Shown: in pieces, positions 4,404 to 59,577 of the stretch
How the letters are laid out: the number at the start of each line of letters is the position of its first letter
Numbering within the stretch: the stretch's first letter is position 1
DNA from: a virus
Virus record (IMG/VR): IMGVR_UViG_3300027974_000032
Location: 11,015 to 75,014 of that record
Reading direction: 5' to 3' (one strand)
DNA: 64,000 nucleotides
Notes under the pieces: model-generated
Told to the model about the DNA's origin: nothing
The model's input: only the letters and a program-made list of their open reading frames with translations
Database searches by the model: none
Translations under genes and position numbers: made by a program

Positions 4404-4687
4404 TATTGCTCCATAGTCATTCTAGTCCAAAAACTTCCCCAGTCTTTTTTATTCCTATGACTATTATACTCCCTTGATATCTCACCTGACTCTAGGTATA
4501 CCCCGCCCCAAATACCCCATTCCTTCCCAGTAACTCCAACTGCAAAACAGTTTTTGCTTACTGGACATGAAGAACAAAGTTTATCTACGGCTGGCCTCAG
4601 AATCTCATCGTCTTCATATTTATCAAAGAATAAGTCTGTGTCATAGTCTAAACAAGAAGATTGATCTTTCCATTCATGTTTAGCCAT
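4403..4687 (-). CDS. whiB: WhiB-family Fe-S transcription factor (start refined to ATG 4687)
   Basis: W....C...DTDLFF...C..CPV...C......GIWGG: four Cys plus the G[IV]WGG turn. Confidence 0.92.
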   Translation of the reverse strand: MAKHEWKDQSSCLDYDTDLFFDKYEDDEILRPAVDKLCSSCPVSKNCFAVGVTGKEWGIWGGVYLESGEISREYNSHRNKKDWGSFWTRMTMEQ

Positions 4688-4898
4688 TAGTTTCCACGAA
4701 CTTACTTGGTATATCCCAACCAGTTCTATTTGCCTCGTATCTAGTCTGAATATGCCATTTGCCATTAACTAGAGCACCATTTGCAGATGACCTAGCCTTA
4801 TCAGATGGGATGGAGTTTACTACTGTCCAACCATCCCAAGATAGTGTCTTATTGTTTTCAACAACTTTTTCCATATGTTCTAATGTTTTGATAATCAT
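4680..4898 (-). CDS. hypothetical protein
   Basis: 72 aa ORF, RBS upstream. Confidence 0.7.
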   Translation of the reverse strand: MIIKTLEHMEKVVENNKTLSWDGWTVVNSIPSDKARSSANGALVNGKWHIQTRYEANRTGWDIPSKFVETNG

Positions 4899-4907
4899 TT
4901 CATTCTC

Positions 4908-5258
4908 CTAGTATCTAAATATTCCGACTTCGACATTATTTAATTGTGCGGTATCGATTAATTTTGAGACTTGCTCACCCTCATTTGAAAGGAAAGCCAT
5001 ATAGTTAAATGTCTCAATATTTTCAGATATCCACTGTGGTGCAACTTTAAAAAACTTAATCTTTTTACCTCTAGACTTCATCCCTCTTTCAGAAAGATTT
5101 ATGAATTCAGAAACCATAGAGTTTATGTTTGCTGGACCAGCAGAATATACATAAAAATATTCATCTTCTATTGGAAGTCCAGAAAGGGCTACACCCATTG
5201 CACGAAGAAATACTTGGTAGTCACTAAAACTACTTGTTCCCTGTACTCCCACTATCAT
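4908..5258 (-). CDS. hypothetical protein, possible SLOG/YspA-like fold
   Basis: MIVGVQGTSSFSDY resembles the I.V.GSR.F.DY start of DUF2493/YspA-like proteins. Confidence 0.45.
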   Translation of the reverse strand: MIVGVQGTSSFSDYQVFLRAMGVALSGLPIEDEYFYVYSAGPANINSMVSEFINLSERGMKSRGKKIKFFKVAPQWISENIETFNYMAFLSNEGEQVSKLIDTAQLNNVEVGIFRY

Positions 5259-5646
5259 TTTTATCTCCATCTGTTAATTGATCTATTATAAAGATCATCT
5301 TGTCTAATTCTACCTTACCCATACCCATTGTGTCAACTACACGTGTGCTCTCCTTATTTATCCCGTTCTCATCAAATTCTGCTGTGTGAAATAGGTTATC
5401 CTTAATCCAGTATGCAGATCCCTCCACGATAATAACACGAACATTATGTTTATCTTCATATTTAGTTGCTTGGGTGGAAAGCCTTTTCTTTGCTGGAGGA
5501 TGAAGATCTAGCAATGGCTTGACTAAAGAATATATATGACTTTGGCTATATTTTATTTGCCCAGTCTCCCTTTTTGGAATAGGAAATCTAAGTCCAATAA
5601 AAACAATAGACGCAAAGGTAATAAAAGATCCAAGCAAATATTTCAT
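5230..5646 (-). CDS. hypothetical protein with N-terminal TM
   Basis: 138 aa ORF; GGAG RBS and TACAAT upstream. Confidence 0.7.
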   Translation of the reverse strand: MKYLLGSFITFASIVFIGLRFPIPKRETGQIKYSQSHIYSLVKPLLDLHPPAKKRLSTQATKYEDKHNVRVIIVEGSAYWIKDNLFHTAEFDENGINKESTRVVDTMGMGKVELDKMIFIIDQLTDGDKNDSGSTGNK

Positions 5647-5669
5647 TTTTCTCCCCTGAAACTATTGTA

Positions 5670-5999
5670 CTACCCTTGTTCCATTATTCTAATAATTTCC
5701 TTTAGACTAAATTGCATACCTTTATCTAATCTTAAAACCTCAGACTTATCTATAGCCTTTTGTGTTAGTTTAACCATAGGATTTTTGTCTGTTACATCCA
5801 TATCAATATATCCAAGGCTCCAAAGAGACATAACGTCTTGATGAAAATATGAAAAGAATTCATTATGTAGTTCTGGGTTTACCTCTTCTAACTTATTAGT
5901 AAAGTTATATAGGGGTTCTCCTGTCTCCATATCAATACCACAAGCCTCTAGCGCTCCCGCAAGAATTAGTTCCTCAATTATCTTATCTTCTTCATTCAT
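5670..5999 (-). CDS. hypothetical protein
   Basis: 109 aa ORF in operon. Confidence 0.7.
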   Translation of the reverse strand: MNEEDKIIEELILAGALEACGIDMETGEPLYNFTNKLEEVNPELHNEFFSYFHQDVMSLWSLGYIDMDVTDKNPMVKLTQKAIDKSEVLRLDKGMQFSLKEIIRIMEQG

Positions 6000-7413: not shown

Positions 7414-8144
7414 TTTTCCTTTCCAGAAATCACAAGTGTTGGTTGCTGAACCCTGTTTTTTAAAACAAAGTCCATTATATCACTTAACTTTCCTTCCATC
7501 ATAAACTCATCTTGTGTTGTTAAGTTGCTCAAAAGAGTCATCTCTTTTTCTGCACCCAAATGATACAGTAACTCTTTAAAAAATATATCCTGTATCTCAT
7601 GATGATAAAATATTACTGATGGATATTGACTATTTTTTATATTTTCGTATATATATTTTTTGTTCTTATCATAAAAGATCATTCCATAAAAAGAAAATGA
7701 TTGACCATAGTAAAATTTAGAATAAGATAGTGAGTCAATTACTGAGGATGGGCCTGGTAAAATTTTGTATTTAATACCTTTTGATATGGCTAACTGCCTA
7801 ATTGTATCAAATGGATCTTGAACAATTGCACTTCCCTCATCAGATAAGCACAAAACAGTTTCATTTAAAGAAATATGCCTCATTACCTCATCAGACATTC
7901 TTTGTCCGCTATTGTTGACACCCTTTAAATCATGAGTTATACCATTTGTCATAAAATCTCTTGGAGAAAAACTAACTATCTCTCCAGTAAAGTTTAACTC
8001 ATAGCGATCAATTATTTCTTTTATGGTTTCTTCATTTTCAACAGCAAGAACTTCTGCTTTTTCAATATGATTGACTAAATTATATGTTAAGTCGTCTAGG
8101 TTACCTATTGGCATTGTTCCAAATATTAGTTTTGCATTACTCAC
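7410..8144 (-). CDS. RsmI-like tetrapyrrole-methylase-fold SAM methyltransferase (divergent)
   Basis: PIGNLDD.T, LSDEGS....DP and ILPGPSS...SL match RsmI motifs TPIGNL.D, VSDAG.P..SDPG and PGPSA. Confidence 0.7.
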   Translation of the reverse strand: MSNAKLIFGTMPIGNLDDLTYNLVNHIEKAEVLAVENEETIKEIIDRYELNFTGEIVSFSPRDFMTNGITHDLKGVNNSGQRMSDEVMRHISLNETVLCLSDEGSAIVQDPFDTIRQLAISKGIKYKILPGPSSVIDSLSYSKFYYGQSFSFYGMIFYDKNKKYIYENIKNSQYPSVIFYHHEIQDIFFKELLYHLGAEKEMTLLSNLTTQDEFMMEGKLSDIMDFVLKNRVQQPTLVISGKEK

Positions 8145-12040: not shown

Positions 12041-12069
12041 ATTATATCATTCATATTGCTTTGTGTCAA
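12041..12069 (-). promoter_or_regulatory. consensus sigma70/SigA promoter upstream of the CHAP gene
   Basis: TTGACA-17-TATAAT with extended TG; AGGAGG RBS downstream. Confidence 0.85.
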
Positions 12070-18854: not shown

Positions 18855-19509
18855 ACTCTTTTATCAACTCTCTAACTACTAGTTCATCTTTTATTATAAC
18901 ATCACAAATATTTGAACCTACTTCAATAATACCATAGGTATCACCATGGTACTCTTGAATATAGTCAGAGTCATTCTTAATTGCAAAATGAAACCAGTCA
19001 ACATTCCAAATAGGCTCATCCCTTAGTTTTTCAAATCTAACAGAATCGCTGATCATTCTAAATGGTGAATCACTTATCTCACGAATAGAACAAGTGATAT
19101 TTTTGTCTATAATCCAAGGTACATAGAATTTATACAAGGCATTAAAACAATCGTTGGGTGCTTCCACTTGATAGTCTGAAGGATAGAACTGTCTTTGCCA
19201 TGTCTTATCTAATGCATAAAGACCATGATCCATTTGCTCTAACCATACCTCTGCATGAGTTTTATATCTTAACACAGCAAAGTTGCCTTCTAAAATAAGT
19301 TCTGGTCTTGGGTAAAAGTGCATTGCATAACAGTTTACTGGCTTTAGTATTGAGTTAGAATATTTTGTGTCATGAACAAATGTAGAGTGTCCCCAATGAG
19401 GAGGTAGTTGAAAGTTTTGATTAGTTATCTCAGAGAAGGAATCGTGCTCACAGTTGACCCAATACTTTGAGCCTATCCTACCACGATTCACTTCATCTGA
19501 AATCTCCAT
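18844..19509 (-). CDS. hypothetical protein
   Basis: 221 aa ORF overlapping its neighbour. Confidence 0.7.
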   Translation of the reverse strand: MEISDEVNRGRIGSKYWVNCEHDSFSEITNQNFQLPPHWGHSTFVHDTKYSNSILKPVNCYAMHFYPRPELILEGNFAVLRYKTHAEVWLEQMDHGLYALDKTWQRQFYPSDYQVEAPNDCFNALYKFYVPWIIDKNITCSIREISDSPFRMISDSVRFEKLRDEPIWNVDWFHFAIKNDSDYIQEYHGDTYGIIEVGSNICDVIIKDELVVRELIKEYDK

Positions 19510-24480: not shown

Positions 24481-24489
24481 ATTATACCA
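24481..24489 (-). promoter_or_regulatory. extended -10 promoter for the PA14 gene
   Basis: TGG-TATAAT just downstream of a terminator. Confidence 0.7.
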
Positions 24490-40590: not shown

Positions 40591-41033
40591 TAATTGGGTA
40601 TGCCTATTACTATCAAGTTAACTGCTACTGATACATCTCCAGTAGTATTAAATTTAACTGTTCCCTCAATTTTTGAGGTAGTTACTGTTTTTAAAATAAC
40701 AGAAACATTTCTTCCTGCCTCTGTATTTCCAACATTAATTGGTGTTGCAGTTGATATGGGTGCATACTTAAAGTCGCTTGGAAAATCATAAGAAAAGTTA
40801 ACCTCATCACCTGCGGTCTTGCTAGCATTATTGGCAACCTCAACATATCCACCAATGATTCTTGCCTCTGATGCCTTTACGCTTTGCTTTCCAAGACCAG
40901 CAGTATCTACTGTGACGTACTTATATGTTGCTGGTGATACTTGTGAGGATAGGTCATTGACTGCACTTGCTAGTTGGTAAATATATCCAACGTCTAGAGG
41001 CTGTCCTCGTTCTGGTAGTGGTAATTTTGCCAT
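40590..41033 (-). CDS. probable minor tail/virion protein
   Basis: End of the tail module; beta-rich C-terminus. Confidence 0.55.
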   Translation of the reverse strand: MAKLPLPERGQPLDVGYIYQLASAVNDLSSQVSPATYKYVTVDTAGLGKQSVKASEARIIGGYVEVANNASKTAGDEVNFSYDFPSDFKYAPISTATPINVGNTEAGRNVSVILKTVTTSKIEGTVKFNTTGDVSVAVNLIVIGIPN

Positions 41034-41043
41034 GGTTATATAA

Positions 41044-41496
41044 TTATACCACTAAATCAATCTGGCCAGACTCAAAAAGTGTTGCTGCTGTGTATCTCTT
41101 TTTAGGAAAAGTTGGAGTTTGAATAGCGATTGCTATACTTGTAGTTGTATTATCAATAATAGTGGACCAAACATTTGTTCCAACAGTTTGAGCATATACC
41201 CATGACTGATTATTTATTTTTTTATAAATATCAAAAGTTATTTGATCCGTTCTTGGAGTCCAAATAACCTGCAGTGATTTCTTTGTTGGATCAATTGAGT
41301 TCGTTACAATATCTACTGAGTATTCTACTGGATCAACACTGTCTACTACAAGTGAATAGATTGGAGACCAGTGAGAAGATCTGTTCTTGTCTTCTGAAAC
41401 AATTCTATATCTAACAATGTAGTCTTGACCATCCCCATGTATTGCTGGCAAAGTAGGCTTTGGAACTATTGCCTTTTTAATTCCTTGGTCTGCCAC
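41044..41496 (-). CDS. probable minor tail protein (FN3-like)
   Basis: VRYRIVSED.NR.S.WS; position in the tail module. Confidence 0.55.
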   Translation of the reverse strand: MADQGIKKAIVPKPTLPAIHGDGQDYIVRYRIVSEDKNRSSHWSPIYSLVVDSVDPVEYSVDIVTNSIDPTKKSLQVIWTPRTDQITFDIYKKINNQSWVYAQTVGTNVWSTIIDNTTTSIAIAIQTPTFPKKRYTAATLFESGQIDLVV

Positions 41497-47340: not shown

Positions 47341-48038
47341 TATGCCTCTTCCAGTGTTACAGAAACATTCCAAAAATCAAAATTAGAATTTCCACGTTTA
47401 ACAACTGTATATGAAAAATCTGATATAAACATTTCTACAACTTGGTTATATTGAGATAGATGGCCATAGGCAGAATCATTTTTCCCAAATTCAGAATATT
47501 TATCATAAGCAAGATAAACCCAGAAAGATCCTTTATGGTTTTCATACCAATCTAAAAGTTCAACTCCTCCTGCACCACCATCAGTTGTATACTGCTGAGC
47601 AAGTATTGTTTGGTTTGGAAGAATAGCAAAACTACCATCTGAATCTGGATTTCTAGACCCAGTTGTTTCTAATGATGTTTTCCCTGTTGTAGAATTAAAT
47701 TCTGGGGCAAGGGCGTGTGCTCTTGATGGCAACATGTTCCATGATGTGGATAGGGTTAGTTTATCTGCAGTATGATAAGATCTCATTCTGCCATTAATCA
47801 TTCTTTCACGCTTTTCTATTCTAACATTTTTAAGATCTAATTGTGACCTATTGTCATCTGAAAGAATTAAAAATTGATCTAACTTATTTGGGTCAGATTC
47901 TGCTCCTGGGTCTGAGCCTATTTCTAAGCCATTTGGAATATAAAGACCATTAATTAGTGTTCCAGAATTTTCTGACCATAGGATTGCTTGTGGTCTTCCA
48001 TATTTTTTTCTTCCATTCATATATCCTGTAGTTGCCAT
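47340..48038 (-). CDS. distal tail protein-like
   Basis: Directly follows the tape measure; C-terminal WNVSVTLEE. Confidence 0.65.
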   Translation of the reverse strand: MATTGYMNGRKKYGRPQAILWSENSGTLINGLYIPNGLEIGSDPGAESDPNKLDQFLILSDDNRSQLDLKNVRIEKRERMINGRMRSYHTADKLTLSTSWNMLPSRAHALAPEFNSTTGKTSLETTGSRNPDSDGSFAILPNQTILAQQYTTDGGAGGVELLDWYENHKGSFWVYLAYDKYSEFGKNDSAYGHLSQYNQVVEMFISDFSYTVVKRGNSNFDFWNVSVTLEEA

Positions 48039-51000
48039 TATAGTCTTGAACTCCTAATTCTTTGTGAATCAATTTGCTTAATGTGTGACATAACTGATCT
48101 TGCAATTTCGTCTGGATTTGCATCAGACTTTACATTTACACTAAGACTATAATTATACACTGAGTCGCCCACTGAATCCCCATTATTAATTGCCTTCATT
48201 TTTTCTACTCCATGAGTATCAACTGCATACTTGCTCATAACAAACTCTCCTGGAGTAAGTCTTGCTGCAACAGTATCAGACCCCATAGCAAATCCACCAA
48301 CAGCAAATGATTTTGGAATCATTCCTCCAGTGTAAAGACCCATTGACTTCATTGCTTGACCTGTGTATCTTGCTGTTGAAAGTGCTCCAGCAGTTCCACC
48401 AAGAGATTTTGTCATTGTAGGAGATGCAATTAGTGCCCTTGACATATTAATTGCAATTGATTCTGGAGAAAGAATATCCTGAGCAAGTCCAACCGCCTTA
48501 TTTAAACTTGCTGTATTGGTTGCTTTGCGAACAGCAAGACCTGCAATCTTACCCATAGATGCGGTAATTTCTTGAGCATCAGCATTTAGTGCATCCATTG
48601 CTTTAAGTGCAGCAAGTGCCTCTGCTGAGGCTGCTGCTGCTTCTGCTGCTGCAGCATCTGCTGCTGCTGCTGCTGAATCTGCAAACTCTTTCTTTGCATC
48701 ATCGCTGGCTTCAGGATCTACCACTACTGGTGGTGGCTTTGGAGTACCATCTCCTGGTCCAACCACTAATCCGCTTCCAGGAAGGGTTGCGCCACTTCTT
48801 AGTCTATCTAGTTCTGCAAAAGCAGCACGTGCTGCTGCTGCTACTGCATCAATTGCCAACTTCAGCGCATCAGCGTCACCTTTAGCACCCTTAAGAATAT
48901 TATTTAAGAAGTTTGGATCATTAATATCTATACCAGCGCTCTTTGCTAAATCTAGTGCAGTAACTGCTGCATCAATTTGGGCTTTTGTCATTCCAAAATA
49001 CATAATAGATTCTTTTTGTTTTTCAATTACACGCTCTAGTGCTACCTTTTCAGCAGTAATCTTATCTATATTGTCTTGTATTTTAACTGCTTCTTTTTCA
49101 AGGTCCCATAATTTTTCTTTTTGAATTTTAGCAATATCCATTGCTAATTGCTTATTTTGTTTTTCTAAAGCAGTTCTTCCAAGAGCATTAATTTGATTAT
49201 CTCTTGAATTTGTTAATGCAGTAGACATTGTGCTCATACCCTGTGCTGCCTGTCGTGCTCTTTCATCTTGTACAATGCCTGCTGCTGCAGATATATCTCC
49301 ACGACTTAATGCATCAGCAAGTGATAGTCTATTCTTTTGTGCTGCTGCAATATCTTCATTAATTGTCTTTATCTTATCAAGTGCTTTTACCTGTTCATCA
49401 TATTTAGCATTAATCTCGTCTTCTGCTAAAGCAATTTTTTGAAGTTCATAGTCATTGACTTTAATTTTATATTCAAGTGGTGCAATTTTTGCATCTGTAA
49501 TTTTCTTTATTTCAGCATTTACACCCTCAAGAGCAATTTGTTGCTCAAGGATTTGATCATTATATTTTTTAAATGTTGGAGCATTCTGCATATCAATCAG
49601 ATGCTCTGTAAGAGCAATATATGCTTGAGCCATCTTGAGTCTAGATAGTTCATAATCTCCCTGATCCTGTGTTGCAATTGCAACCTTTTCTGCTTTTTTC
49701 TTTTCCTCATTGTATTTCTTTATTGCATCTAGTGCTTCTTTCCATTTTGCAGAAGTCTTATCAATTGCAAGAATAGCCTTTGCCATATCTGGATTTGAAG
49801 CAATCTCCATTGCCATTGCAGCATCAATACCCGCTGCCCTTAATTTGATTAAAGCACCAGTTTGGTTTGTTACTTCTTTTATTTTGGCAGCCATGTCCTT
49901 AAAGAAATCATATGTGTCGTTTCCACCTGTTGATGTTCCGTTTCCAGCAGAATTTGCAGCATCATTAAATCCTTTAATCATAGCAATAGTTGCTGCAATT
50001 TCTTTTTGAAGATCTTTAGTCCATTTATTTGCAGCAATATTTGCTTCATTACGTCTTTTTGCAGCATCTGCACTTAAGTCTGCTGCCTTGCCTGCTGCTA
50101 TGTTAGCATCTGCAACTGCATTAAGAGAACTTGCTAGCCTATAAGCAATTGCTGCTTGAGTAATCATTTCTACTGAAACCCCTGCAGTTGCTGCCTTAAG
50201 CAATAAAGAACCATCCTTAAAACTACTTACACCCTTTGTTACTGCAGCAAGTTCAGGATTTATCATCATAATTGCTTTTCTCATTAAGAATAGTTGTGCA
50301 TTGCTTCCTGGTACCTGCTTTTTAATAGTGCCGATCATGGTATCAAATGATGAATTAAACTTCTTAAGATCTATCTGTCCAGTTTGAGTTAGTCTACTTA
50401 GGCTCTTAGAGTATGATGAAATACCTGTTGCTGCGTTAGTAAGTGCAGCCCTCTGCTCATCAAATAACTTTGCGCTAATAAATTTACTAATATCTTTTTT
50501 ACTTGCTCCAGTTGAAGCATAAGACTTATCAATTTGGTCTTTTACTTTTCTATAATCATTTTCAAACTTCTTGCTAAATCCTTGAAGTCCAACTCCAAGT
50601 TGTGCATTTAACTTTCCAAACCCTGCATCATCAAATGTAATGTCTTTGAAATTAAGGTTGAGATCTTTCTTTCCAGCCTCTTCTCTGATAGTATCAATTA
50701 AGAGTTGTACTTTTTCTTTTGCCAAGCCCTGAGACATTAACTCAAGACCCTTAAATGTAAGGGCTGCCTTGGCTTTTTCATCACTTAGGTTTGATACTGC
50801 TGTTATTGTTGAACCATAAGACTTCTTAAATCCTGGGTCTGATAACAAAGACTCTCTGGATGTTCTTGTTTGCGATCCAGTCACATCATTTGCTTTACCA
50901 GCCCTAAATGTTTCTAGTGGTCCCTTTTGTGGGATAAGGCTAAAGTAATCTGCTAGAAATTTTGTCTGATCTGTAGTTGTCTTTAACGCATCTGTGAATG

Positions 51001-54000
51001 CCTCGACTTGTTGGCGTTCTTTTTCTTTTGCGCTATTGTATGCTTTAATGGCAATAACTCCTGCAATTAATGCTATAGATGCAAGACCAAAACCAACTTT
51101 AAACTTTGTAACAAATTCCATCATCTTAGTTCCAGTAAGCATTTGCAAGATAGATGAGAATGCAAAAAGTGGACCAGAAATCTGGAAAGCAACTTCAGAT
51201 AGTTTACCAAGGTTTCCTCCAGCAGTCTGAGCAATGCCAGATAATGCTGTTAGTGCAAACATTCCACCCATAACTCTTCTGTTTAACTTATCCATACTTT
51301 CATTAAGTTTTACTTGTTTCTTTACTGCATCAGATTTAGCCAATGAGTCTTTAGTCACTCTTGATTGATCTGCTAATGAGTTTAATGGTACTCCCGCTCC
51401 CCCAGCAATTCCACCTGGACTAAATGCGTCAGTTGCATATGGTAGGTTTGTGGCTGGATTAATAAGTTTTTTAATTGCAACATTTCCTAATTGCTGTGCT
51501 GCATTTGCAACCTTTGCTTGGCTATTAACCAAGCCAATCTTCATTCCGTCACCTACATTTTCACCTTGTACAATTGCATCCTTCGATGGTGACTTTGACT
51601 TTGTACCACGAGCAATTCCATCAATTAAAGATTCACCAAGTTGCGTTCCTTCTCTTTTTAAAATTACATCTAATTTTGCTGAAAGATTTTTTACATATGG
51701 AACCATTTGTGCTTCAAGTTCAGCAACTGTTCCAGTTACGGACTGAGCCATGTGAGCCATTTGTGCTTTTACAAATTGACCTTTACCAGATTCAGGAATA
51801 TTTGGTGTCACTGGATTTTGAATATTTTGCATCATAGCCCAACTCTTTGAACCACTTTGAGAACTACTACTTGGTAAATCTTGTCTTTGGAATACGTTTG
51901 GATTTAATCTTGATGCTAAATCAAATGCTGCAGAGCCTCTTGATTTGTAAGATCCTTGTCCAGGAATTCCAGTTCTGCTTGTAAGTGTATTTGATTCTGG
52001 ATTATAATTTGTTCCACTGATTGCACCAACTGGTCCAATAGTAGTAATTTCCTGAATAGATCTTTCAAATGCTGTTGCCATATCTTTTCCAGCAAGTTGA
52101 ACTCCTTTTGCAACATCTCTCATTGCTGGTATTACTATTGATTCAAAGTCTGAATCTACCAAAAACTCTTTTCCAGAATTTGCTAGTGCATCTGCTGCAG
52201 AGTTTACAAATAAGTCACCAACTCTTCTAAACTCTTCAAGGTTTCTTGGGTCATTAATTTTAATTCCCATTTCTTTTGCCATTACTGCAAACAGAGGCGC
52301 TGCTGCTGCAGCACCTGATTGTTTTAGTGATGCTACAACATCTGCTGTTGCTGCGCCTTGACCACCTTGTTGACCAGTCTTAGCATTCATCCATTCCTGC
52401 ATAAACAAAGTTATATTTTTAAATCCTTTTACATCTTGTGTTCCAGAAGATGCTCCTCCTGGCATTGATCCACCAACCAAAGTTGTTGGGCTTTTAAATC
52501 CTGCAATATTTCCAGCAATAAGTCCCTTGACCATTCCAGGATATTTTTTAACAGTTCCTGCTGAAAGAATTGCTTCACCATTAGATGCCATGATTGGAAC
52601 AGAATCAGACTTTGGACCACCAGGACCTGAAATAATTCCACCCTCTGCAAACTTTTTTGGCATACGGCCTGGAAGCATCATTCCTGGATTTGCTGCTGCA
52701 AACCTTTGAGAGGCAGCAGTACCATTTACATATGCACGTGTTAATGCTTCAACTGCTGCTGCTTCACTTGTAAACTGTTGAGTTAACTTGGCATGTACTT
52801 GATCAAGCGAGTGTGCTGCTGCTGCAGCATCTAACTGCTCCGTTGTCATGTAAGTTGTTTCTTGTCCTAAAAGATGTGATTGACCAGTTAATCCCAAGTA
52901 TCCATTTCTTAGAGTTAAAAATAATTTAATTATGTTACCAACACCGTTAGCAAGAAGACCAAATGTCATTAGTAGCACTGGTCCTACTGCACCAAGGCCA
53001 ACAGTTAAAAGTGTAATAAACTTTTTAGTACCAGACGAAAGCCCACTAAATTTTTCAAGTATATCTCCAACAAACTTAACAATTGGAGTAACTGCTTCTA
53101 AAAATGTTTTTCCAACTGGTATTAAAGATGCTTTTAACTGTTCTACACTTGCCTTAAACTTAACCATTGGCGAATCTGCAGTTATTCCTAATTCTTTTTC
53201 AGATACTCTAGCGAGATCTTCAATTGATGTACCAGCAAGATCTAATACACGAGAAGCCTGTGTTCCATCTTTTGTAACATTCTGAAATAATGTTGATAAA
53301 CGTGCAAATTGAAACTTACCAAACATTTGTTCAATTGCTTTTGCTCTATCAAGTGGTGCTAAAGTATCTAACGCTTTTGCAAACTCAACAACAGTCGCTT
53401 TAATATCTCCTTGGTTTGAGTTAACAATGTTTTTAATGTTAATCCCATAAGCCTGAAGCATTGCTGATGCTTTAGTTGTTGGGTTAATAATTGATGCAAG
53501 TCCAGATTTAAGTGCGTTAGCACCTTCAGATGCATTAACTCCACCCTCTTTCATAGCAGTCAAGAAGAATGCTAAATCCTTAACATCTCCACCAAGTTGT
53601 TTAATGATTGGTGCAACTTTTGGAATTGCTGTTGTTACGTCATCTAAAGATAAAACAGTTTGGTTTTCTACTGCGTTAAGAAAATCAATTGATCCAGCAA
53701 GTTGTTCTGAAGATGTTCCAAATGCATTTTGTAAAGAGATTGTTGTTTGCAATGCTTTTTGACTATCAATTTGTCCAAGTACAGAAAGCCTTGTTGCTTC
53801 TGTTGTTTGTCTTTGTAGATCTATTCCTTTAAAGCCTGCTGCTGCAGCATCTGCTGCTAATCCAACAGTACTAGAAACTGCAATTCCATATTTAGTAAAC
53901 ATTTGCCCAAGTTGCTGAACATCAGCAAGTGCTTGCTGCGTTTCTGCTTGTGGAGTAAATAAATCGCCATAAACCTTTCTAAACTTTAAAGCCTGTGTTT

Positions 54001-54646
54001 CCATTTCCATAAATACTCTTGTTGCTGTTGTTCCAAGTATTGTTAGTGGAATTGTAAAACCAACCATTAATTGGCGACCTGCCCACTGGGTATTCTTACC
54101 AAAGTTAATGAGGTTTGTGGAACCTTGCTTCATTAACTGGTTAAATAATTGTTGTTTCTGTGCAGCCATTGCAACTTTTGTGCCATAGTCATCCATGTTA
54201 AGACTAGTTGGCATAACTGCAATTGCTTTCATTGCACCGTTTGCATCACGACCTAATTTAATATATTGTGTCTGTAATCTTTTGACACGCTCTGTTGCAA
54301 CCTTTTCAATAGTATCAAATTCACTAGTAAAAGACTTACCAAATGTTTTAGTTGATGCTGCAGCAAACCTAAAATATTGTCGCATTGAGAACTTGTTCTT
54401 CTCAAGTGATGCAGTAAATGATTCTGATGTTGTTTTGATAGTCCTGAGTTCTGCAGCAAATGCACCAGTGGCATTAATACTTGCAAGAAGATTCTTTTGA
54501 AGATCTCTTTGTGCTAGTGCTGCAGCCTCAGAAGTTCTAGATATTGATGTGTGAAACTGAGATAGTTGTTTTTGGAGAGATTTTAGTTGTGATAATGCAT
54601 TAGACGTGTCAATATTGACGCCTATATTGGCATTAACATCAGCCAT
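48038..54646 (-). CDS. tail tape measure protein
   Basis: 2202 aa, Ala-rich helical; TP901-like core, TM segments, GG...D.V.A....GE motifs. Confidence 0.95.
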   Translation of the reverse strand: MADVNANIGVNIDTSNALSQLKSLQKQLSQFHTSISRTSEAAALAQRDLQKNLLASINATGAFAAELRTIKTTSESFTASLEKNKFSMRQYFRFAAASTKTFGKSFTSEFDTIEKVATERVKRLQTQYIKLGRDANGAMKAIAVMPTSLNMDDYGTKVAMAAQKQQLFNQLMKQGSTNLINFGKNTQWAGRQLMVGFTIPLTILGTTATRVFMEMETQALKFRKVYGDLFTPQAETQQALADVQQLGQMFTKYGIAVSSTVGLAADAAAAGFKGIDLQRQTTEATRLSVLGQIDSQKALQTTISLQNAFGTSSEQLAGSIDFLNAVENQTVLSLDDVTTAIPKVAPIIKQLGGDVKDLAFFLTAMKEGGVNASEGANALKSGLASIINPTTKASAMLQAYGINIKNIVNSNQGDIKATVVEFAKALDTLAPLDRAKAIEQMFGKFQFARLSTLFQNVTKDGTQASRVLDLAGTSIEDLARVSEKELGITADSPMVKFKASVEQLKASLIPVGKTFLEAVTPIVKFVGDILEKFSGLSSGTKKFITLLTVGLGAVGPVLLMTFGLLANGVGNIIKLFLTLRNGYLGLTGQSHLLGQETTYMTTEQLDAAAAAHSLDQVHAKLTQQFTSEAAAVEALTRAYVNGTAASQRFAAANPGMMLPGRMPKKFAEGGIISGPGGPKSDSVPIMASNGEAILSAGTVKKYPGMVKGLIAGNIAGFKSPTTLVGGSMPGGASSGTQDVKGFKNITLFMQEWMNAKTGQQGGQGAATADVVASLKQSGAAAAAPLFAVMAKEMGIKINDPRNLEEFRRVGDLFVNSAADALANSGKEFLVDSDFESIVIPAMRDVAKGVQLAGKDMATAFERSIQEITTIGPVGAISGTNYNPESNTLTSRTGIPGQGSYKSRGSAAFDLASRLNPNVFQRQDLPSSSSQSGSKSWAMMQNIQNPVTPNIPESGKGQFVKAQMAHMAQSVTGTVAELEAQMVPYVKNLSAKLDVILKREGTQLGESLIDGIARGTKSKSPSKDAIVQGENVGDGMKIGLVNSQAKVANAAQQLGNVAIKKLINPATNLPYATDAFSPGGIAGGAGVPLNSLADQSRVTKDSLAKSDAVKKQVKLNESMDKLNRRVMGGMFALTALSGIAQTAGGNLGKLSEVAFQISGPLFAFSSILQMLTGTKMMEFVTKFKVGFGLASIALIAGVIAIKAYNSAKEKERQQVEAFTDALKTTTDQTKFLADYFSLIPQKGPLETFRAGKANDVTGSQTRTSRESLLSDPGFKKSYGSTITAVSNLSDEKAKAALTFKGLELMSQGLAKEKVQLLIDTIREEAGKKDLNLNFKDITFDDAGFGKLNAQLGVGLQGFSKKFENDYRKVKDQIDKSYASTGASKKDISKFISAKLFDEQRAALTNAATGISSYSKSLSRLTQTGQIDLKKFNSSFDTMIGTIKKQVPGSNAQLFLMRKAIMMINPELAAVTKGVSSFKDGSLLLKAATAGVSVEMITQAAIAYRLASSLNAVADANIAAGKAADLSADAAKRRNEANIAANKWTKDLQKEIAATIAMIKGFNDAANSAGNGTSTGGNDTYDFFKDMAAKIKEVTNQTGALIKLRAAGIDAAMAMEIASNPDMAKAILAIDKTSAKWKEALDAIKKYNEEKKKAEKVAIATQDQGDYELSRLKMAQAYIALTEHLIDMQNAPTFKKYNDQILEQQIALEGVNAEIKKITDAKIAPLEYKIKVNDYELQKIALAEDEINAKYDEQVKALDKIKTINEDIAAAQKNRLSLADALSRGDISAAAGIVQDERARQAAQGMSTMSTALTNSRDNQINALGRTALEKQNKQLAMDIAKIQKEKLWDLEKEAVKIQDNIDKITAEKVALERVIEKQKESIMYFGMTKAQIDAAVTALDLAKSAGIDINDPNFLNNILKGAKGDADALKLAIDAVAAAARAAFAELDRLRSGATLPGSGLVVGPGDGTPKPPPVVVDPEASDDAKKEFADSAAAAADAAAAEAAAASAEALAALKAMDALNADAQEITASMGKIAGLAVRKATNTASLNKAVGLAQDILSPESIAINMSRALIASPTMTKSLGGTAGALSTARYTGQAMKSMGLYTGGMIPKSFAVGGFAMGSDTVAARLTPGEFVMSKYAVDTHGVEKMKAINNGDSVGDSVYNYSLSVNVKSDANPDEIARSVMSHIKQIDSQRIRSSRL

Positions 54647-54668: not shown

Positions 54669-54989
54669 TTATTCTTGAATTGTAGTATTAAGAAGTGCGC
54701 TTACCTCATTGAGTTTTACCCCAGAGGCTCCTTCAACAATCTTGTATACCGTTGGAAGGTCAAGTAGTTCTTCCAAAGCCTTTAGATCTTCAGCCAAGTC
54801 TGGCTTGTACTGCTTTAGTGCGATCTGAACACATTCAATTAATACTGTCATTGACTTATCGTTATCTTCTGCGATATCTGCAATTCCTTCAAACTTTTTC
54901 ATAAACGGACGTAGCAAAGAAATCTTAAGTGGACGTACCTCAATTTCGGTATTATCCATAAGTGTTACCTTTGTTGTTTGCGTTGTCAT
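54669..54989 (-). CDS. tail assembly chaperone, short (gpG-like); start refined to 54989
   Basis: Between tail tube and tape measure; paralog of the N-terminal half of 55042-55722; GGAGG RBS. Confidence 0.75.
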   Translation of the reverse strand: MTTQTTKVTLMDNTEIEVRPLKISLLRPFMKKFEGIADIAEDNDKSMTVLIECVQIALKQYKPDLAEDLKALEELLDLPTVYKIVEGASGVKLNEVSALLNTTIQE

Positions 54990-55016
54990 TTTTTCCTCCA
55001 AGATGTAGACTATCTA

Positions 55017-55025
55017 ATTATAGCA
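55017..55025 (-). promoter_or_regulatory. extended -10 promoter for the short chaperone/TMP operon
   Basis: TGC-TATAAT. Confidence 0.65.
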
Positions 55026-55041
55026 TAGCAAACTGCTATTT

Positions 55042-55722
55042 TTAGTCTATTTTCTCGTAAGACAATCCCATTCCAATACCAAATCCAGCATTAGCAGCAT
55101 TTTGTCCTTGAAGGGCAACAATGTCTTTTGGATCACTAGTTTTACCTTTGCTGTAAACTCTAGCCTTCATTTCTTCCCATGCGTTGCTATCAGTTTTACC
55201 ACTTTGCTCATCTAAATCTACGCCTTCCATTGCTGCTAAGAATTTCTTTTCTTGATAGTCTAATTCTCTTTTTGAATTAAGGGTTGTTAGCAGTTCTGGC
55301 ATTGATATTGATGTTTCTAGTTCCTCATAGTTTTTCCATATACCCAGTAAAAATAACTCAGACTCCAGTTTAACTAAATCTAATGAATCCCAAGATGATC
55401 CAGAATCTTCTGCTTGTTTTTTAACTGGCTCTTCAGATTTTTGATTAATTTTAATCCCAGCAGCAAACTCAATAATTTTATATATTGTTGGGAGATCTAC
55501 GTAGTCTTCAAGTTCATCAATTACTTCTGGTCTATACTGCTTCATAGTTATGGCTGCACATTTTGATAAAATCTCAATAGTCTCTTCATCATTTTCTGCT
55601 TCATGTATAAATTCAAACATTTCTAAAAATTCTCTTAAATATTTTATTTTAAGTGGTGTTGCATAAATTTCATAACCATCCATCATTTTTATATAGGATG
55701 ACTCATATATTTTTGTAGGCAT
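55042..55722 (-). CDS. tail assembly chaperone, long (gpGT-like, single frame)
   Basis: G-like N-terminal half, linker, then a T-like domain (W.NY.ELE...S..EL). Confidence 0.75.
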   Translation of the reverse strand: MPTKIYESSYIKMMDGYEIYATPLKIKYLREFLEMFEFIHEAENDEETIEILSKCAAITMKQYRPEVIDELEDYVDLPTIYKIIEFAAGIKINQKSEEPVKKQAEDSGSSWDSLDLVKLESELFLLGIWKNYEELETSISMPELLTTLNSKRELDYQEKKFLAAMEGVDLDEQSGKTDSNAWEEMKARVYSKGKTSDPKDIVALQGQNAANAGFGIGMGLSYEKID

Positions 55723-55728
55723 CTATCT

Positions 55729-55737
55729 ATTGTACCA
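55729..55737 (-). promoter_or_regulatory. extended -10 promoter, leaderless transcript
   Basis: TGG-TACAAT-6 nt-ATG(55722), no SD. Confidence 0.7.
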
Positions 55738-55772
55738 AACAGAAAGGCCCAATCCCGAAGGATTGAGCCTCT
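55738..55772 (-). terminator. intrinsic terminator after the tail tube gene
   Basis: AGGCUCAAUCC-UUCG-GGAUUGGGCCU-UUCUGUUU. Confidence 0.85.
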
Positions 55773-55787
55773 CACTATTAAATTGTA

Positions 55788-56432
55788 TTATGCAGTTGCT
55801 GGAATTGTACGATCTACAATCTTTCCGTATGATGCATCATCATTTGGAAGAAGGCGGAATGATACTTCGAACATAGTCGCTGCATCACGCTTAGCAGATA
55901 CTGTTACATTCTCGATTGAGAGTGCACGGTATGCTACATAAACACGTTCAATTGCAGATTCAGGTGCACAGTCGCCTGTACCTGGACCTACTGCTACCAA
56001 ACCACGTTCAACTGGACATTCGCCCAAGTCTCCTGCAGATAGGTTTAGTTCCTGTGAGTTTGCTCCGATACCTGTTCCTGTTGCTTCAGATAGATTAGAA
56101 TCTGAAGAAGCAAGTGCAAATAGAAGATTCTCAAGAGTTGCTTCAGCAAATGTAGTATTTAGATTTACCTTCATACCCTGCTTATACAACTTTGCAACGT
56201 CTAGAACCTGATCAACCTGTACTTCACCGAAGTCAGGCTGGAACTGTAGTTCAAGGCCGTTCATTGTGTAACCAACGTTACGGAAATCTTCATCGTCTGT
56301 TAGAGATTCTCTGAAAGACTTATTGATTTGGTACGCTGGAAGATCAGCATCAGTTAAGTTGCCTAGATCATATGTGAAAAGTGCTGCTGCTCCAACAATA
56401 ATGTTGTTGCTGCTACCTCTTGTATATGCCAT
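55788..56432 (-). CDS. major tail (tube) protein
   Basis: NI.VG, VGYT..G.EL, V.VDQ, T.FAE.TLENL; strong RBS, own terminator. Confidence 0.85.
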   Translation of the reverse strand: MAYTRGSSNNIIVGAAALFTYDLGNLTDADLPAYQINKSFRESLTDDEDFRNVGYTMNGLELQFQPDFGEVQVDQVLDVAKLYKQGMKVNLNTTFAEATLENLLFALASSDSNLSEATGTGIGANSQELNLSAGDLGECPVERGLVAVGPGTGDCAPESAIERVYVAYRALSIENVTVSAKRDAATMFEVSFRLLPNDDASYGKIVDRTIPATA

Positions 56433-56499
56433 ATTTGTTCACCTCTTTTTTCTTTGTTGAAATAAGGGCTTGTTTCCTCATGACAATTATAACATGCCT

Positions 56500-59538: not shown

Positions 59539-59577
59539 TATTTCCTCCTAAATAGTATTATATCATTATAAGTTATA

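Follow-up and report, generated by a model that had tools for sequence, protein, structure and literature searches.

In the phage genome examined here, the short and the long form of the tail assembly chaperone are likely encoded as two separate genes that replaced an ancestral locus expressed by -1 frameshifting. The sequence analysed (the window) is a stretch of 64,000 nucleotides from an IMG/VR virus record. What we observe is two separate genes, both conserved and under selection, which have different conserved start signals and from which the slippery site has been lost. On the minus strand of the window the order is tube gene, terminator, long chaperone gene, a 52-nt gap, short chaperone gene and tape measure gene, with the following features:

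55788-56432, minus strand: major tail (tube) protein gene, 214 aa, immediately 5′ of the chaperone pair
55742-55773, minus strand: terminator-like UUCG hairpin, 14 bp with a T-rich tail, directly 3′ of the tube gene stop
55729-55737, minus strand: extended -10-like box TGGTACAAT, 6 nt 5′ of the long-gene ATG, without a ribosome-binding site
55042-55722, minus strand: long chaperone gene, 226 aa, an in-frame G′-T fusion, corresponding to GT (TAC-NC)
55017-55025, minus strand: consensus extended -10 box TGCTATAAT, inside the 52-nt gap, 5′ of the short gene
54995-54999, minus strand: ribosome-binding site GGAGG, 5 nt 5′ of the short-gene ATG
54669-54989, minus strand: short chaperone gene, 106 aa, G only, corresponding to G (TAC-N)
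48038-54646, minus strand: tape measure protein gene, 2202 aa, beginning 22 nt past the short gene

For the short ORF, the length of 106 aa is counted from the ATG just past GGAGG, the start codon of an alternative 110-aa reading from TTG falling within the ribosome-binding site. The long protein is made up of a G′ domain (residues ~1-96), a junction or linker (~97-110) and a T domain (~108-226). In the window and in all relatives that are long enough, the tube gene lies upstream of the chaperone genes and the tape measure gene downstream. The tube protein matches phrog_2175 (E 1.4e-32) and, weakly, phrog_885 "major tail protein," and its gene is syntenic with the annotated major tail protein of the Streptomyces phages Coruscant and Circinus. 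The N-terminus of the tape measure protein is conserved and syntenic across all relatives, and its gene has the position of the annotated tape measure genes in the same two phages. At 2202 aa this tape measure is very long and, by the usual rule of 0.15 nm of tail per tape measure residue, the predicted tail would be ~330 nm long.

A preliminary description of this locus, made from the sequence alone, had claimed that the short ORF aligns with the N-terminal part of the long ORF, that the long ORF runs on in frame to a second domain, and that the genes stand long then short with a 52-nt gap between them. The coordinates above bear out the order and the gap. By BLASTP the long and short proteins share 38/94 identities (40%) and 72% positives (E = 6e-25) across residues 7-96 of the long and 4-97 of the short protein, and the residues common to both copies (PLKI..LR.F, C...MKQY.P and DLPT.YKI) are the conserved core of the family. 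Both proteins match phrog_10504, and the long one has an additional match to phrog_10474 at residues 128-217, as expected of a second domain. At the level of the genes, the sequences indicate a common N-terminal domain, to which the longer protein adds a C-terminal extension.

Relatives of these proteins among isolated phages were found by protein comparison. A megablast search of the locus against 50,697 phage records gave no match, so isolates offer protein-level relatives only. A tblastn search of the same collection returned 130 matches, to 127 Streptomyces and 3 Rhodococcus phage records, with E-values down to 6e-35. The 70 matches listed of these 130 are all in two pieces, G and then T, except for a weak and partial match to Rhodococcus phage Francesca. 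The ORFs beneath the tblastn matches are mostly annotated as tail assembly chaperone, together with the next ORF, and by sequence the window's proteins are homologous to annotated tail assembly chaperones. Among the matches listed, all of the homologues found are actinophage or metagenomic.

Structural comparison lends modest but consistent support to the predicted chaperone identity. The AlphaFold model of the long protein (pLDDT 74.5) matched "Tail assembly protein GT" of phage N15 in BFVD with a probability of 0.98, along with several other chaperones, and the model of the short protein has the same beta-hairpin and helices as that of the long N-domain. Comparisons with experimental structures were weak. 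The top VIA-align match was YqbN (3klu; Z 4.8, 83 residues aligned, rmsd 3.9), which we take to be a prophage tail-chaperone homologue, the title of the PDB entry naming no function; the HK97 chaperone 2ob9 scored Z 3.6 over 79 aligned residues (rmsd 4.9). The same HK97 tail assembly chaperone was the top match, also weak (E 0.77, TM 0.45), when the short model was compared with the PDB by Foldseek, a search in which the full-length long model returned nothing meaningful. When PDB sequences were searched with a profile of the long-protein alignment, nothing but chance matches to prion proteins came up (E ~0.5). Pfam matches were all sub-threshold, with Phage_TAC_19 seen in 2/46 members (E 2e-4); those to DUF4778 (long protein) and Rubis-subs-bind (short protein) were taken as noise.

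The state from which the two genes would have arisen is still present in relatives. In the 130 cultured phage records and in a metagenomic sister group, the halves of the long protein are split over two frames, G and T at -1. The closest cultured homologues, in Streptomyces phages of the family Stanwilliamsviridae (among them Coruscant, Circinus and BillNye; 37-44% identity over both halves), share with the window the synteny of tube, chaperone and tape measure genes and the terminator and extended -10 box before G; unlike the window, they possess only one G, and their T lies in the -1 frame. In Coruscant and Circinus, the chaperone ORFs lie between the major tail protein and the tape measure, the second ORF in the -1 frame. 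The T frame in the frameshifting relatives is open for 55-91 nt back into G, where it encodes a conserved SW..LDL..LE.E.F segment that is 5′ of any ATG. Thus, T in those phages can only be made as an extension of G. The G/T overlaps of Streptomyces phages were inspected at L001:4288-4345 and in L085-L093. Canonical XXXYYYZ heptamers are lacking in the overlap of the Coruscant-type phages. Loci of the Circinus/BillNye type carry CCCAAAT.

The sister group consists of 5 distinct metagenomic loci (L105, L108, L115, L131 and L148) that are nearer to the window than the Streptomyces phages are. In all 5, one G gene precedes a T in the -1 frame, and the overlap of the two opens with an in-frame G GGA AAC that does not vary. 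The -1 frameshift proteins predicted from these loci (226-239 aa) can be aligned over their full length with the 226-aa protein of the window, the identity being 49-55% in four of the five loci and 40% in the divergent L105; over the T domain, identity to the fused gene is 54-66% in the same number of loci and 48% in L105. The GGGAAAC slip site of the sister loci aligns with the in-frame linker of the window, where the fused genes are ~6 residues longer. A related locus with a single frameshifted gene, the two frames of which correspond to the two halves of the 226-aa protein, a check raised in the preliminary description, was found. In the window's long gene no slippery XXXYYYZ heptamer is present, and none is conserved at the junction across 52 long genes. 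The long form, as read from its sequence, is one open frame instead of the product of the frameshift typical of G/GT chaperones. Production of a G-sized protein from the long gene by recoding was considered and rejected, the slippery site not being conserved at the junction in these 52 genes.

A tree of the tube protein and the tape-measure N-terminus (513 columns) places the two-gene loci on one side of a branch with 97% support; the Streptomyces phages are supported at 100% and the sister group at 86%. With these groupings, one change of state suffices. When the tree is rooted on the Streptomyces phages, frameshifting is placed as ancestral and the two-gene layout as derived. The T-domain tree conflicts with the flanking-gene tree in that 4 frameshifting loci are nested in the fused group with 96% support. 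The T domain is too short and too conserved to give polarity, and the internal branches are short; because this tree is poorly resolved, polarity was read from the 513-column tree. Short genes and the G genes of the sister group fall together in the G-domain tree (97-100% support), and the short gene is, on this phylogeny, the orthologue of the single G in frameshifting relatives.

The two-gene layout is widespread in uncultured phages. Homologues of the long protein number 5838 (search band of 124-396 aa) and come from many independent assemblies; among the 120 listed, nearly all are 213-246 aa long and most are full-length, at ~226 aa. In the best 80 IMG/VR loci, the order tube, long, short, tape measure was found in 79/79 that extend far enough. 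A second scan, seeded with the T domain, added 54 two-gene loci, 24 frameshift-type loci and 2 fused loci that end before the position of the short gene. Every relative of the clade that extends far enough, about 130 loci, has the long-then-short layout, and it was found in none of the cultured phages in the 50,697-record collection. A dN/dS of ~0.17 for both genes (0.13-0.19 for each part of the long gene) indicates that purifying selection acts on both. The sole defects among the 79 close loci are single-base deletions in A-runs in L076 (~4820), where the short gene is broken, and in L082 (~950), where the long-gene stop is removed relative to the near-identical L064 and L080. These deletions are probably assembly errors and not pseudogenes.

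It is conceivable, though we consider it unlikely, that the two paralogues have different jobs, for example with a self-sufficient long protein and a short one that serves another client or the 2202-aa tape measure. The G domains are only 40% identical, the long N-domain forms a long-branched group of its own, and other genes can intervene between the two. In L025, an insert at 4742-5371 between the long and short genes encodes a 209-aa protein with a SAM-methyltransferase-like motif, and in L028 an insert at 4729-5800 in the same place contains ORFs of 204 aa and 154 aa, to which no function was assigned. Despite these inserts of 0.8-1.2 kb, the TGnTATAAT box and the ribosome-binding site stay with the short gene, downstream. 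One or two unrelated genes thus lie between the two chaperone genes, which need no adjacency. On the other hand, what the two copies have in common is precisely the conserved core of the family, both genes are kept between tube and tape measure in every locus, and the short gene is the apparent orthologue of the ancestral G. A division of one ancestral G/GT pair over two genes remains the reading that we prefer.

The origin of the upstream copy is less straightforward than that of the short gene. The free G-domain tree has the form (Streptomyces, ((sister G, short), long N-domain)), so that the long N-domain is a separate, long-branched group outside the short and sister G genes. This position may reflect faster evolution after a duplication within the lineage, or an older duplication, or a foreign copy. 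A clade of the short gene and the long N-domain, as expected from in-lineage duplication, is not favored by the tree and was not rejected by the AU test (p = 0.23). The placement of the long N-domain outside the group of sister G and short genes (97-100% support for this group) would suit an alternative in which the fused gene recombined in from another phage lineage, or in which the duplication is far older, such that recoding was not replaced in place. We regard this as improbable. In its T domain the fused gene closely resembles the sister loci, with short internal branches, the AU result leaves the in-lineage grouping standing, and no other lineage with a long-type N-domain was found in the phage records or the T-seeded scan. 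The earlier proposal that duplication replaced recoding holds in one part, namely that the two-gene layout is derived and the slippery site lost; its other part, a duplication within this lineage, is neither favored nor rejected by the G-domain tree.

A third reading, in which the locus is an ordinary frameshifted G/T one and owes its single long frame to an error of sequencing or assembly, is extremely improbable: single-base homopolymer deletions do exist in L076 and L082, but the same open frame is conserved across independent assemblies and present in about 130 loci, which refutes it, and the numerous homologues (5838, most of those listed full-length, from many independent samples), the absence of the slippery site and the intact separate G gene downstream all speak against it.

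Replacement of the frameshift by two genes would place the control of the two forms in the signals at which transcription and translation start, and these signals differ between the genes and are conserved. The hairpin behind the tube gene was found by a terminator scan and has a folding energy of -25.4 kcal/mol (z = -5.05). A strong hairpin (MFE -19 kcal/mol or lower) is found here in 41/41 distinct relatives, with stem sequences that are quite different. Before the long gene, TGn-TAnnnT stands at a fixed few nt (mostly 6 or 9) from the ATG in 40/41 distinct relatives, its -10 variants being TACAAT, TATACT, TAGAAT and TATAAT, and no ribosome-binding site was found before the long ATG in 40/41. 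Before the short gene, TGnTATAAT is present in 44/44 distinct relatives and is followed by a leader of roughly 20-30 nt, with a site of the GGAGG/AGGAGG type 5-9 nt from the ATG in nearly all 44. The motifs quoted in the preliminary description, TGGTACAAT 6 nt before the long ATG and TGCTATAAT with GGAGG before the short ATG, are all present; its claim of a separate extended -10 box for each gene extends to ~40 distinct relatives, and that of a leaderless-type start of the long gene behind the tube terminator agrees with the hairpin at 55742-55773 and with the lack of a ribosome-binding site in the relatives. In the frameshifting relatives, the single G is preceded by the same terminator, extended -10 box, leader and ribosome-binding site. 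The short gene has thus retained the start signals of the ancestral G together with its protein sequence, and it is the upstream copy that became leaderless.

Boxes of the short-gene type recur in the window. All 8 copies of TGNTATAAT are on the coding strand, with none on the opposite one, and 6/8 of the sites are intergenic, just upstream of ORFs:

59557-59565, minus strand: TGNTATAAT site
56486-56494, minus strand: TGNTATAAT site
55017-55025, minus strand: TGNTATAAT site
41043-41051, minus strand: TGNTATAAT site
24481-24489, minus strand: TGNTATAAT site
18893-18901, minus strand: TGNTATAAT site
12041-12049, minus strand: TGNTATAAT site
7474-7482, minus strand: TGNTATAAT site

The strand bias and the intergenic placing fit a real class of promoter, and TGNTATAAT looks like the main promoter class of this phage, one that has no -35 element. 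The box at 41043-41051 lies 9 nt before an ORF start at 41033, which makes this ORF a second candidate leaderless gene. A match to the WhiB family (PF02467) at 4499-4672 on the minus strand of the window (G000:C1:15513-15686; 43.4 bits, the cut-off being 23.6) suggests that this phage, with 36% G+C, has an actinobacterial host. Leaderless mRNAs are common in Actinobacteria, and they can be translated well there. Since efficient leaderless translation is possible in Actinobacteria, the long form is not necessarily scarce.

A scheme consistent with these observations would start from an ancestor with a -1 programmed frameshift, in which G was followed by T in the -1 frame. A second copy of G would have come to sit downstream of T, and the upstream copy would have been fused in frame to T, leaving an insertion of roughly 6 residues at the former slip site. 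The N-domain of the long protein would then be a diverged paralogue of G and its C-terminal domain would be T. In lambda, the G domains of G and GT coat the tape measure and the T domain recruits the tube protein. By analogy, we infer that the G domains would coat the tape measure here too, and that a less abundant long form would bring in the tube protein through its T domain. How much is made of each form is probably determined at transcription and at translation initiation. The short gene would benefit from its consensus -10 box, its strong ribosome-binding site and read-through from the upstream promoter, and the long gene would be held lower by its position behind the tube-gene terminator, its weaker -10 box and its leaderless start. 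Judging from these promoter and initiation signals, the short form is probably made in excess over the long one (G > GT).

To our knowledge, the G/GT frameshift is the rule for long-tailed phages. It is among the most conserved recoding events in viruses, and it is usually explained as a way to keep two proteins with a domain in common at a fixed ratio. In lambda, the slippery heptamer is GGGAAAG, to which GGGAAAC of the window's sister group is close. Like the lambda genes, the chaperone genes of the window lie between those of the tube and the tape measure and encode a short and a long form with a common N-domain, of which the long one has T. N15 GT and other chaperones are among the BFVD matches of the modelled long protein. 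The window differs from lambda in that the long form is read from an ordinary ORF with no shift of frame, in that the N-domains share only 40% of their residues where those of lambda are the same, and in the gene order, with the long gene in front; promoter-like box and type of start are also separate for the two genes. The production of lambda-type G and GT by -1 programmed ribosomal frameshifting is described, in the passages of PMC12859696 and PMC10274946 that deal with it, on the basis of earlier work (Levin et al., 1993; Xu et al., 2004).

Encoding of the two forms in separate genes is not without parallel. According to the summary in PMC10274946, some T4-like phages do without the frameshift and encode the short form and a long fusion in two genes (Vladimirov, Gautam and Davidson, Virology 2022;566:9-15), and by that report the two-gene principle already has a precedent. 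As described in this summary, the T4-like phages resemble the window in having TAC-N and TAC-NC in separate genes, the long one an in-frame fusion. They differ in being contractile-tailed phages of Gram-negative hosts, whereas the window's clade is long-tailed and related in sequence to actinophages; set against the same summary, the clade also has its two genes in the opposite order, each with a promoter-like box, and has sister lineages with a slippery site. Since these sister lineages still keep the slippery site, the window's clade is probably an independent origin of the two-gene solution, the T4-like phages being compared here by description. Literature searches turned up no report of duplicated chaperone genes in a long-tailed phage whose tail is non-contractile, which does not prove that there are none.

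It is reasonably likely that a large and abundant uncultured clade, with a probable actinobacterial host, has permanently exchanged the frameshift for a duplicated G and an in-frame G′-T, and that the N-domains have since drifted to 40% identity. If true, tail assembly requires neither an identical shared domain nor the translational coupling of the two forms, and sister lineages with the slippery site on one side and two genes on the other would allow a direct test of the selective value of the frameshift. The GGGAAAC state and the two-gene state, present in sister lineages with collinear proteins, form a matched natural comparison, in which it can be asked whether promoters and start signals can set the ratio instead, and what happens when the two copies of the shared domain can evolve apart. 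It can also be asked how such a transition proceeds, here with the ancestral promoter, leader and G unit apparently kept downstream and the upstream copy fused and leaderless. Thousands of contigs will be wrongly annotated by pipelines that expect a frameshift at this position. Where public sources name these proteins, the label is "hypothetical," and many GenBank records of Streptomyces phages give T as a separate or hypothetical ORF.
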